Notes: generated by a model from the letters alone, not told the origin. Counted from the stretch's first letter, positions 46,592-49,543 are shown. The stretch is DNA of 64,000 nt from an uncultured Verrucomicrobiae bacterium (GCA_963718565.1 OY970364.1:928001-992000), one strand, 5' to 3'. Numbers and translations: made by a program.

Positions 46592-46918
46592 TCAAAAGTT
46601 CTGTTCGTATTTATCACCAGGGATAGAAGGAATTTTAACGACGAGAATATGACAGTCCTCTAAAAACACCGGATCAGCAACTTCTCCAGGTTCTATCACG
46701 AATATATCGCCTGGCTTTAACTGCATTTCTTGAATGACCATGCATCCCAGAATTAAACAATTAAATTCCCTGGCCCCCTTGTGAAAATGCCTCGGCCAAA
46801 CTTCCCCCTTCGTATGCCGTTTATAACAGACTTCAAATTGATCGGTCTTAAAAAGAGAGGGTTCAAAATTTCCTAAAAACCATCCTCCTTTAAATTCTTC
46901 TATTCTGTAAAGGTTCAT
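46592..46918 (-). CDS. Small cupin-fold protein
   Basis: GGWFLGNFEP, HFHK...E, L.PGDIFVIEPGE; ATGA-coupled to the nucleotidyltransferase. Confidence 0.75.
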   Translation of the reverse strand: MNLYRIEEFKGGWFLGNFEPSLFKTDQFEVCYKRHTKGEVWPRHFHKGAREFNCLILGCMVIQEMQLKPGDIFVIEPGEVADPVFLEDCHILVVKIPSIPGDKYEQNF

Positions 46919-47640
46919 AACATCTCCAGATAACTTTTTAAATCCTCAGGAGTCCCAATCGCGTAATGTTGATCTGCAGGAATTTCATAAATGCCTATAT
47001 TAAGACCTTCTTCAATGAGTTGGTTATACGATTCAGAAATATAAAATTCATTATTCACTCGGATATTTTTAGAAATCATTTTCTCCGCCGATCTGACAAA
47101 ATCTTTACCATGCTTCCAATAGTGGATTCCATTTAACGAATGCGTGCTTATCACCCTTTTCTCCGCAAATCTTATCGCTCGGTTTTCATAAAGTTCCACA
47201 TAGCTATTTTTTTCTGTGGTAGAAAAATAGGTCACGACGAGTCCATCTCTATGCTCATTTAGAGAGATCTCCTTTAAAAAATGATCAGAATTCCATCTCA
47301 TTATTTGATCACAGTTAGCAATAAGTAGTGGATCGTCATTATTGATGAGTTCCTTAGTCAGCAAAATGCTAGATGTAGGTCCTTGCGTGATATAATTAAT
47401 TCTTATTATTTTCGGCCGGCTGCATGAAGTATGAACAGCATCTTTAATCGTTTTATTAAAGGATTCATTTTCATAATCATAGGCTATAAAGATATAGTTC
47501 CCATCGATCCCTAAACTATCAATAGCAGCTTTAATCATGGGCACTCCATTCACATCTATGATGGGTTTCGGAATTTCAAATCCATGATTTCTAAATCGTT
47601 CGCCTCGTCCAGCCATTGGGACAACGATGTTCATAATCAT
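46915..47640 (-). CDS. Sugar-phosphate nucleotidyltransferase (NTP_transferase fold)
   Basis: IVVPMAGRGERF...PKPII, LLIANCDQ, AEKRVIS, RVNNEFYI, IGTPEDL; start at 47640 (ATGA overlap) or 47634. Confidence 0.88.
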   Translation of the reverse strand: MIMNIVVPMAGRGERFRNHGFEIPKPIIDVNGVPMIKAAIDSLGIDGNYIFIAYDYENESFNKTIKDAVHTSCSRPKIIRINYITQGPTSSILLTKELINNDDPLLIANCDQIMRWNSDHFLKEISLNEHRDGLVVTYFSTTEKNSYVELYENRAIRFAEKRVISTHSLNGIHYWKHGKDFVRSAEKMISKNIRVNNEFYISESYNQLIEEGLNIGIYEIPADQHYAIGTPEDLKSYLEML

Positions 47641-48818
47641 TCCCCCTTGCCCCATTTGAGGACTGCCTGATGGTATTCCTGTCCATGATCTCCATTAATC
47701 GCCTGTTTCATGGCTCTAACTCCTGATAATGTCCCTCCAGGATGCCCGTGAATCGCTCCACCGCAGTTGGCCATATAATCCACTCCGACCCTTTTGTTAA
47801 TTCCTTCGATCAATCCGGGGTGCATTCCACAACTTAGGGCAGCCACCACATTGCCTTTTCGAAGTGTGTCCATCACTTGATGCATATCATCGCCGCTGGC
47901 ACTGTAATAACCACCCATCATCCCTGCATGAATAAAATCCACACCCATCATCGCTGCTAATTTACAAATAAAATTCCAACGGATATGAAACTGATGAGCA
48001 CTATTTGTCAAAATTTTATCGCCGCTTTTTTGAAAATGGATAAAAAGAGGAAGATCCAAATCACGAAGCGCTTTATACATTCCAAGACCGCTCCAGAAAT
48101 TGACATGAACGGCATTTCCTCCCAATTCATAAACTCTTTTCGCTCGATTTAAAATATGAGGAGTATCTGAATTGATACAGACTGCATAAATCACTTTTTT
48201 ATCTTTTAGATAATTCATAATCAAAGGCACACGAACTTCTAATGGACACAACGGAGGATTTGACATGATTTCATCTTCTTTGATGAAATCCACTCCCCCC
48301 TCTACCATTTCTTTCACCAATTCCAATAGTGTATCAGGAGTGATTCCCACCTTGGGTTTTACAATTCCTCCCAGAAGCGGTTTGCCATAAACTCCTAAAA
48401 AGTCTCTAGCTCCACTCAAACCAAATTGAGGGCCTTTAAATGAGGTTAACATGCATTGTGGAAACTCTACGTCGATTAGCTGACAAGACAGAATGTTTTC
48501 TATATCCATTTGACCACCCATCAATTGACACAACAATTGAGAGATGCCATCTGTGTCAATATCGATGTTGGCGACAGGAAAAGCGATATGGACAACTCCA
48601 CTCTTTTGCGTTTTTAAACACTCCTCACTGCCGATCACTAAACAAGAATGATCTTCGAATAACTGTTGCGTTTCCCAACGATTTCTCACATTGGGATTTC
48701 CCACACTTTGTCCAATCGCTAGATTCCATGCGGCATCGCACAGATGCGTTTTGCTCTCAAGCCAATATTCAGCCACAAAATAATCGTTTTTACTTACCGA
48801 CGATTTAAAAATATTCAT
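47637..48818 (-). CDS. RuBisCO-like protein (form IV-like RLP)
   Basis: GPQFG, GGIVKPKVG, GGVDFIKEDE, DFIHAG, LSCGMHPG, GGAIHGHPGG; lacks the HxHR and loop-6 Lys of carboxylating forms. Confidence 0.9.
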   Translation of the reverse strand: MNIFKSSVSKNDYFVAEYWLESKTHLCDAAWNLAIGQSVGNPNVRNRWETQQLFEDHSCLVIGSEECLKTQKSGVVHIAFPVANIDIDTDGISQLLCQLMGGQMDIENILSCQLIDVEFPQCMLTSFKGPQFGLSGARDFLGVYGKPLLGGIVKPKVGITPDTLLELVKEMVEGGVDFIKEDEIMSNPPLCPLEVRVPLIMNYLKDKKVIYAVCINSDTPHILNRAKRVYELGGNAVHVNFWSGLGMYKALRDLDLPLFIHFQKSGDKILTNSAHQFHIRWNFICKLAAMMGVDFIHAGMMGGYYSASGDDMHQVMDTLRKGNVVAALSCGMHPGLIEGINKRVGVDYMANCGGAIHGHPGGTLSGVRAMKQAINGDHGQEYHQAVLKWGKGE

Positions 48819-48874
48819 ACCACCACTAATTTTATTAATTATTAATGAAATTTATGTAAAAAAATTAACAATAT

Positions 48875-49543
48875 TTAACTGACAGTCCTTCTCAAAGGAT
48901 GAAGAACATATTCCAAGACAACATTATCGCTTATGGGATGTTCTAAGATGTTTCTAAAATTCTTTGGCATATAATTCACAGAATTCATCTTCATGATATT
49001 TCCGAAACAACCCTCCGGTTGAGCAGACATTCCGTAAAGAGCATTTAATGTGGGTAGATCCTTATAATCCCAAGCATTCATGAAATTTTCAGGAGAAGCA
49101 CATGCAGTAACATCTAAAAAATGCTCTCCGGTGACATAGGCATCTCTTTCAAAGCATTGGTTCAGATCTAATATGTTGTAAGAAGTGTCGAGTCTAAAAA
49201 AAAACACAAAATCATAATTGCTATATGTGTCACGAATTAATCTTGAAGCATTTTTCATCGTTAAAAAATGCTTGAAAGTATTAAACGCAGAGCAGCCCTC
49301 TGGCGCTCTTGTGAGCAATAATTTTTCTTCCACAGTTGCCCGATTCGGCTCATTACACAACACTATGCAATCAAACTTTTCAGACAAATTACCAATAAAC
49401 TCTCTATCTAATTTATTATTCCATGTGTGCAAAACAAATTTAGTTTCATGTTCAACAAACATTTGCGCAATGCGACAAAAATTTGATACGCAAAATTGCA
49501 CATCTGGTCTAACTGGTCCTTTCATAAAGATGACTATTTTCAT
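48875..49543 (-). CDS. Putative glycosyltransferase-like protein (WavE-like pattern)
   Basis: MKIVIFMKGPVR, LHTWN, YDFVFFFRLD pattern resembling surface-glycan-locus proteins. Confidence 0.5.
   Translation of the reverse strand: MKIVIFMKGPVRPDVQFCVSNFCRIAQMFVEHETKFVLHTWNNKLDREFIGNLSEKFDCIVLCNEPNRATVEEKLLLTRAPEGCSAFNTFKHFLTMKNASRLIRDTYSNYDFVFFFRLDTSYNILDLNQCFERDAYVTGEHFLDVTACASPENFMNAWDYKDLPTLNALYGMSAQPEGCFGNIMKMNSVNYMPKNFRNILEHPISDNVVLEYVLHPLRRTVS

Follow-up and report, generated by a model that had tools for sequence, protein, structure and literature searches.

To our knowledge, all characterised RuBisCOs and RuBisCO-like proteins (RLPs) act in carbon fixation, in sulfur or methionine salvage, or in the breakdown of sugar acids. 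Here we analyse an RLP gene that lies among four genes at positions 46592–49543 of a 64,000-nt stretch of DNA from an uncultured Verrucomicrobiae bacterium (GCA_963718565.1 OY970364.1:928001-992000; hereafter the window), which is part of a single 2.28-Mb contig. That new groups of RuBisCO homologues exist is stated in the GOS paper. Another study describes a 'Form IV-like' clade of about 80 phage sequences and two Beckwithbacteria, which falls outside other RLPs, lacks several catalytic residues and is of unclear function (Jaffe, Castelle, Dupont, Banfield, Mol Biol Evol 2019, PMC6389311). Judged by hosts and tree position, the clade of the window RLP is probably the same one: both consist of divergent RLPs that numerous phage contigs and Beckwithbacteria encode, with catalytic residues lost and, as far as the tree described below reaches, a place outside other RLPs. 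They differ in that the window clade also occurs in SAR11, DPANN archaea, Legionellaceae, Planctomycetota and a bacterium of intracellular type. It is, moreover, tied to a cassette that encodes a predicted sugar-phosphate nucleotidyltransferase (NT), a cupin, a GDPD-type protein and a GT-A-fold protein, neighbours that do not figure in the available part of the published account. Our literature searches found no published link between RLPs and nucleotidyltransferases, polysaccharide biosynthesis or phage nucleotide sugars.

We consider it reasonably probable that the four genes form one horizontally acquired, phage-associated sugar-activation cassette, in which the RLP and the cupin make a sugar phosphate, the NT activates it and the GT-A-fold protein transfers it. 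The RLP would be a non-carboxylating, Mg2+- and carbamate-dependent enzyme that converts a keto-sugar phosphate by enolisation into an isomer or epimer; the likeliest substrate is a monophosphate whose phosphate is adjacent to the carbonyl. The cupin would act on the same carbon skeleton as a metal-dependent aldose–ketose isomerase of the phosphomannose-isomerase type. From their product and a nucleoside triphosphate the NT would form a nucleoside diphosphate (NDP)-activated sugar or sugar phosphate, and the GT-A-fold protein would attach the activated unit to an acceptor, for which a surface glycan is the probable candidate. The scheme is conditional as to reaction type, order of steps, identity of sugar and nucleotide, and acceptor. 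A first-pass annotation of the stretch had already proposed an anabolic NDP-sugar pathway, and this remains the best-supported reading because NT and glycosyltransferase (GT) genes co-occur with the RLP, the RLP misses the MtnW and OiaX equivalog cut-offs, and the fourth protein has a GT-A fold; the ketose or branched-sugar product, the lipopolysaccharide target and the order of steps that it named stay conjectural.

Active site and affiliation of the RLP

The RLP (47637–48818, minus strand; 393 aa) belongs to the RuBisCO large-subunit superfamily. It matches the catalytic-domain model PF00016 with an E-value of 9.7e-35 (120.7 bits versus a cut-off of 30.1), and its N-terminal RuBisCO domain falls slightly under the Pfam cut-off (18.2 versus 20.7). 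However, it stays below every NCBIfam equivalog cut-off, including those for MtnW, OiaX and forms II and III. The scores in bits are 165.9 versus 409 (PRK09549) and 137.2 versus 513.6 (TIGR03332) for the MtnW-type models, 153.7 versus 700 for OiaX, 162.4 versus 438 for the form I/III subfamily, 165.5 versus 497 for form III and 96 versus 489 for form II.

The full carboxylase residue set comprises E60, N123, K175, K177, K201, D203, E204, H294, R295, H298, H327 and K334, in spinach numbering. We mapped residues in 163 clade sequences aligned with sequences of forms I and II whose scores exceed the NCBIfam cut-offs (NF003252 for form I). K175 and K177 (K154 and K156 of the window RLP; motif VKPK) are kept in 163/163 sequences. 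K201, D203 and E204 (K180, D182 and E183; motif KEDE), H327 (H297), S379 (S329), G381 (G331) and G403/G404 (the P1 glycines, Gly353/Gly354 of the window RLP) are kept in 162–163. The remaining six members of the set are replaced: E60 by G36 (Q37 adjacent), N123 by G102 (Q103 adjacent) and K334 by Y304 (motif GMMGGYY) in all 163 sequences, H294 by Q263 in 162 and R295 by K264 in 161 (both within the motif HFQK), and H298 by D267 in 158. G380 is likewise replaced by C330 throughout (163/163; motif SCG). The alignment bears out all five motifs that had earlier been picked out by eye. The window RLP also retains 60/60 columns that are ≥98% conserved among the 162 other clade members, and its motif match is therefore not a matter of chance.

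The presence of K175, K177, K201, D203 and E204 would be compatible with a true CO2-fixing RuBisCO. However, H294, R295, H298, K334, E60 and N123 are all gone, their replacements are invariant or nearly so across the clade, the form I, II and III cut-offs are missed, and no phosphoribulokinase or AMP-pathway genes were noted nearby in the Pfam annotation. Carboxylation is thus extremely improbable, as had been suspected from the motifs. The residue pattern suggests instead that the protein retains the machinery for enolisation and the site for the proximal phosphate, and that it has lost the residues for CO2 addition, hydration and distal-phosphate binding. A keto-sugar monophosphate is thus the probable substrate.

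Among solved structures, the window RLP scores best against MtnW/YkrW, the 2,3-diketo-5-methylthiopentyl-1-phosphate enolase (PDB 2oek, 1.5e-36). MtnW enolises its substrate adjacent to a 1-phosphate, and both proteins would be non-carboxylating RLPs with a carbamylated lysine and metal ligands. They differ in that the window RLP is far under the equivalog cut-offs, has no methionine-salvage neighbours and keeps both K175 and K177. The catalytic lysine of MtnW presumably occupies the N123-equivalent position, which is Gly/Gln in the window RLP.

A homologue search returned 2667 sequences at E ≤0.001, the best 120 of which are all at least 61% identical and 389–413 aa long, except for three of 333, 381 and 637 aa. 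A scan of one genome per species gave 46 cellular loci, in Patescibacteria (including Beckwithbacteria and Saccharibacteria), SAR11, DPANN archaea, Planctomycetota, Verrucomicrobiota, Elusimicrobiota, Azospirillum, Turneriella, Bacteroidota, four Legionellaceae and one Francisellaceae metagenome-assembled genome (MAG). Relatives are also encoded on 334 viral contigs, of which the best 80 carry RLPs 55–66% identical to that of the window. Counts for viral RLP loci below refer to these 80 contigs; those of NT-A, mini-GDPD, cupin and GT-like genes are for genes within four of the RLP, detected with hidden Markov models (HMMs).

In a quick IQ-TREE phylogeny of 66 rows without viral sequences, the 54 rows of the NT-linked clade are monophyletic (SH-aLRT 99, stem 1.42) and separate from the form I, form II, OiaX-like and three other RLP references; the three OiaX-like sequences form a group of their own. 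The three other references are unclassed RLPs from alphaproteobacterial genomes, and MtnW, form III, IV-Photo and DeepYkr were not among the references. The sister of the window RLP is a metagenome protein with 88% identity to it, and both fall within a 26-row subclade that includes a Beckwithbacteria MAG copy (57% identical) and other Patescibacteria copies. The expectation that the protein would not cluster with catabolic RLPs holds in the tree for the OiaX-like sequences; for MtnW, the equivalog cut-off is missed.

Linkage to nucleotidyltransferases, cupins and glycan genes

Immediately downstream of the RLP gene lies a small predicted sugar-phosphate NT of the type we call NT-A (46915–47640, minus strand). 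Its open reading frame (ORF) extends to 47655 (46915–47655, 246 aa); the ATG chosen in the first-pass annotation is at 47640, and the start of homologues (MNIV) corresponds to the ATG at 47634. The protein carries the G-x-G-x-R...K signature (PMAGRGERF...PKP) and is matched by our NT-A HMM. General models place it less firmly: Pfam NTP_transf_3 is under its cut-off (E 3.5e-4, 21.2 versus 27), NCBIfam ranks the sugar-1-phosphate NT families Arch_glmU, rmlA_long and AglF highest (best 41 bits, far under cut-off), and the best structure match is the uncharacterised 4evw (1.2e-10). Homologues of the protein pass Pfam PF00483.

We found an NT homologue within 0.8 kb of the RLP in 42/46 cellular loci from many bacterial and archaeal phyla (tblastn); the four loci without a match are that of the closest genome relative (L001) and three on contigs that are short or cut. 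Among the viral RLP loci, 76/80 contain NT-A. Natural fusions also occur: P0099 joins NT and RLP in one chain, and P0172 and P0173 (813 and 817 aa) are RLP-NT-linker-cupin proteins with domains in the order of the window genes. The claimed co-occurrence of RLP homologues with NTs and GTs is borne out.

These results bear on the alternative that the RLP serves methionine salvage or sugar-acid catabolism and that its neighbours are unrelated. Such a role would fit the best sequence matches, which are to MtnW enolases (2oek; PRK09549), but all MtnW and OiaX scores are far under the equivalog cut-offs, and the clade is well separated from the OiaX-like RLPs. Nor would the role account for the NT linkage and the fusions. 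The Pfam annotation of the window has no methionine-salvage or sugar-acid genes near the RLP, as the first-pass annotation had stated. We regard this alternative as very unlikely.

Two further observations concern other loci. A second family, NT-B, with a P[VL]AG(PN/KD)..NF start and no G-x-G-x-R arginine, flanks the RLP in 18/46 cellular loci, often with a GDPD-like gene; examples from SAR11 and DPANN loci are L027:5240-5980, L018:5235-5972 and L015:9450-10205. NT-B may be a non-canonical transferase. In L001 (L001:5989-9624) a 555-aa methyltransferase-like gene stands between the RLP and GT-like genes, with arginase and ornithine cyclodeaminase genes adjoining.

In 17 cellular loci the neighbours include GT2, GT4, GT9, GT25, WavE, LicD (Legionella nautarum), full-size GDPD (DPANN), Bac_transf and PMT_2 genes, together with FkbM and other methyltransferases, B12-radical SAM enzymes and SDR epimerases; Wzy-like and Wzz-like genes also surround the cassette in cellular genomes. 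Viral cassettes may additionally carry an SDR epimerase (27/80), a Methyltransf_24-like gene (21/80) or an FkbM methyltransferase (16/80). The nucleotide-activated product of the cassette could in principle be put to a use other than surface glycans: it might serve to hypermodify phage DNA, to modify proteins or to form a soluble metabolite. The module is most abundant on viral contigs (334 with the RLP, at least 589 with the small GDPD-type protein discussed below), Atlas look-alikes of the GT-like protein are 92–100% viral, and the window has no flanking glycan cluster, all of which would suit such a use. On the other hand, cellular cassettes sit among the surface-polysaccharide genes just listed, and we therefore think a non-glycan product unlikely.

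The most upstream gene of the four (48875–49543, minus strand) encodes a 222-aa protein with no Pfam or NCBIfam match. Its AlphaFold2 (AF2) model (pLDDT 95.4) has a GT-A fold, as had been guessed. The top Foldseek matches are the GT8 and GT6 enzymes glycogenin-2 (4ueg, 4.3e-7) and alpha-1,3-GalT, and VIA-align ranks BoGT6a (4cj8_A; Z 13.0, rmsd 3.4, 188 residues) and GnT-I (Z 12.5) highly. IspD-type nucleotidyltransferases also reach Z ~11.5, because the GT-A fold is common to both enzyme groups. The family has 49 representatives, and DUF7796 is weakly matched in 5/48 relatives. R117, D119 and D144 are invariant, so that an R-x-D stands at the usual place of DxD; neither a DxD motif nor membership of a named GT family was found. 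By HMM the family is present in 23/80 viral and 4/46 cellular RLP loci. Scans with a narrower alignment (A4) found 2 metagenome loci and no viral loci; since the HMM of alignment A3 detects the family in the 23 viral RLP loci, the empty viral scan reflects a limit of the pattern method.

The last gene (46592–46918, minus strand) encodes a single-domain cupin of 108 aa, with Cupin_7 and Cupin_2 matches under the Pfam cut-off (4e-3) and no match to MannoseP_isomer. Cupins from 11 other loci are 39–54% identical to it; in alignment A5 H44 and E51 do not vary and H46 is mostly retained. Its AF2 model (pLDDT 95.4) finds as best functional Foldseek matches the Thermococcus phosphomannose isomerases 7zvm and 7zvy (TM 0.67–0.71, 23–25% identity), and further the cupin sugar-phosphate isomerases 3i7d and 3l2h. 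By its predicted structure the protein thus looks most like minimal phosphomannose isomerases. A cupin is found in 14/46 cellular and 46/80 viral loci.

A further component, a mini-GDPD of ~150 aa with the signature HRGN..EN..E-D..HD, matches the GDPD structure 3i10 at 1.2e-4. It is encoded in 69/80 viral RLP loci. Among the 79 retained loci in which a mini-GDPD ORF was called, the RLP lies within five genes in 11 and is absent in 68. NTs of at least 400 aa occur in 32 of these 68 RLP-less loci, in 0/11 with the RLP and in 12/80 RLP-anchored viral loci, counts that come from viral contigs which are not independent lineages. All eight long NTs sampled consist of HAD_2 and NTP_transferase domains. 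The HAD domains of four from RLP-less loci and of one from an RLP locus (L124) have the beta-phosphoglucomutase family as best NCBIfam match, under cut-off. Where the RLP is missing, therefore, another sugar-phosphate enzyme, a mutase or phosphatase domain, is often attached to the NT, which agrees with the RLP supplying the substrate of the NT. These HAD-NT phage cassettes share NT-A and the mini-GDPD with the RLP cassettes, and in many cases the GT-like family and the cupin as well. They differ in carrying HAD_2 on the NT instead of, or occasionally with, an RLP, while the window has an RLP and a short NT; they appear to be an RLP-less version of the module.

Several observations weigh against a sugar-activation cassette in the window. 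In L001, the RLP (75% identical) and the GT-like gene (59%) have no NT or cupin within 6 kb. In the Pfam annotation of the window, recognisable glycan-synthesis genes other than the cassette are absent within ~6 kb. The 222-aa protein is only a putative glycosyltransferase, given a modelled fold common with nucleotidyltransferases and R-x-D in place of DxD, and many generic cupins are found among the structural matches of the cupin. The alternation of HAD-NT and RLP is a tendency, with a long NT in 12/80 RLP loci and only short ones in 19/68 RLP-less loci. The window cassette lacks the mini-GDPD gene present in the majority of cassettes, and a search of the rest of its genome, which had no positive control, found none. 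Literature searches found no published function for the clade.

The window copy: relatives, selection and surroundings

The nearest relative of the window cassette is a metagenome contig, L079, with the order GT-like gene (85% identical), RLP (88%), mini-GDPD (161 aa) and NT. Pairwise DNA alignment places the missing gene at the RLP/NT junction (47632–47645), where the window is without ~465 bp that hold the mini-GDPD gene of L079 and where short GGATTA..TATG repeats mark the ends. The alignment suggests that the gene was deleted in the window. The four genes are otherwise in order: their ORFs are intact and all on the minus strand, and the last three (RLP, NT and cupin) are joined by ATGA overlaps, exactly as the first-pass annotation described. 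The RLP stop codon TGA (47639–47637) overlaps the NT ATG (47640–47638), and the NT stop overlaps the cupin ATG at 46915–46918. An AT-rich spacer of 56 bp (48819–48874, minus strand) between the GT-like and RLP genes contains a GGTGGT ribosome-binding-like site before the RLP start codon. The sequencing runs listed for the region are soil-metagenome DNA only, with no RNA run.

The deletion raises the possibility that a phage-derived insert is in decay here, its ORFs still open but its pathway dead since the mini-phosphodiesterase was lost. Besides the absence of this gene from the junction and, as far as the search could tell, from the rest of the genome, this explanation gains from the restriction of the cassette to 1/41 related genomes, its deviating base composition (GC content 0.379 for the island versus 0.426 for the window) and a DDE transposase 6 kb away. 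However, all four ORFs are intact and neatly joined by their ATGA overlaps. Measured against L079, the RLP has a dN/dS ratio of 0.105 and the GT-like gene one of 0.135, which means that both are under purifying selection, and the RLP keeps all of its conserved columns. In addition, many cassettes have no GDPD-like gene nearby (18/46 cellular loci, and 11/80 viral loci when four genes to either side are counted). On balance we find a dead remnant unlikely, and the preferred reading remains that of a working sugar-activation cassette.

The cassette is a recent foreign insert from a horizontally acquired, mobile and phage-rich set. In a comparison of 41 genomes (this one, 18 from other species in its genus, 6 from its family and 16 from its order), RLP, cupin and GT-like protein are each found in this genome only, the sole exception being a 21.6-bit match with stop codons in one genome (G015). 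At the DNA level, window positions 42000–54000 were searched against 5 genomes of the same genus, none of which matched the four genes. The flanks of the cassette are not syntenic in the same-genus genome G003 or in G001, and the borders of the island are therefore undefined. The genome encodes four full-length TLC (ATP/ADP translocase-type) nucleotide transporters, with one additional partial match. Such transporters are typical of obligate intracellular energy parasites, and their presence points to a bacterium of intracellular lifestyle. A search for Chlam_OMP6 gave no match in the genome, nor in the controls.

Other features of the window lie further from the cassette. The DDE transposase (DDE_5 / DDE_Tnp_1; 55504–56595, minus strand) and an Rfam match to group II intron D1-D4-7 at 37838–37969 indicate that mobile elements are active in the region. 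An EamA-family transporter (54406–55353, plus strand), 5 kb from the cassette, scores 27.3 against a cut-off of 27 bits with the Pfam nucleotide-sugar-transporter model. Two stretches of ~165–185 bp (50355–50540 and 52157–52322) have dozens of matches with 80–92% identity in G003. They lie at the 5' ends of divergent outer-membrane beta-barrel-like genes (50374–51321, plus strand; 51406–52329, minus strand) and look like a dispersed repeat or a common leader of a large outer-membrane protein family. Finally, a 260-aa protein of the helix-turn-helix plus SocA_Panacea antitoxin type (40149–40931, minus strand) overlaps a 130-aa ORF without Pfam match (39770–40162), and the region 39770–40931 is a candidate Panacea-type toxin–antitoxin pair.

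Comparison with known sugar-activation routes

The clade is an abundant and strongly conserved branch of the RuBisCO superfamily whose members are linked to a sugar-activating enzyme and in some cases form one chain with it. If the proposed scheme is right, the RuBisCO fold has a biosynthetic role in the making of nucleotide-activated sugars, and phages and microbes with minimal genomes have in common a portable route to an unusual surface sugar. For the genome studied here, the cassette may alter the cell surface of an intracellular bacterium. The role of Form IV-like proteins would then also be directly testable with three or four small soluble proteins.

A more specific and frankly speculative version is that the RLP replaces a phosphomutase. 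It would deprotonate a ketose 1-phosphate beside the phosphate and reprotonate it to give an aldose 1-phosphate for the NT, by analogy with the chemistry of MtnW and MtnA-type isomerases. We think this version unlikely to prove right as stated. Were it true, phages would have spread a route to NDP-sugars that needs no phosphomutase among bacteria and archaea, and the RuBisCO superfamily would gain a new reaction class and its first biosynthetic role in glycan building.

Two known pathways help to place the cassette. In the CDP-D-arabinitol pathway of Streptococcus pneumoniae 17F, the cytidylyltransferase AbpA acts on xylulose 5-phosphate and the phospho-unit is transferred by a LicD-type enzyme. 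In this pathway, then, an NT activates a keto-sugar phosphate without a preceding step, a precedent for the scheme proposed here. In Legionella nautarum (L038) a LicD gene is the second gene upstream of the RLP, and a gene of the same family is found two genes upstream in three of the four Legionellaceae loci (L038–L040) and four upstream in the fourth (L041). The pathway differs from the window cassette in that it includes no RLP, and neither LicD nor a reductase is encoded in the window.

The second is the GDP-mannose route of the AlgA/AlgC type, in which a bifunctional type II phosphomannose isomerase/guanylyltransferase works with a separate phosphomannomutase. The window NT is no equivalog of a named guanylyltransferase. 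Nevertheless, P0172 and P0173 likewise have an NT domain and, behind it in the same polypeptide, a cupin isomerase domain, the window cupin is structurally nearest to phosphomannose isomerases, and in both systems a third enzyme must supply the phospho-sugar for the NT. This third enzyme is an alpha-phosphomannomutase in the AlgA/AlgC route, whereas in the window it would be the RLP.

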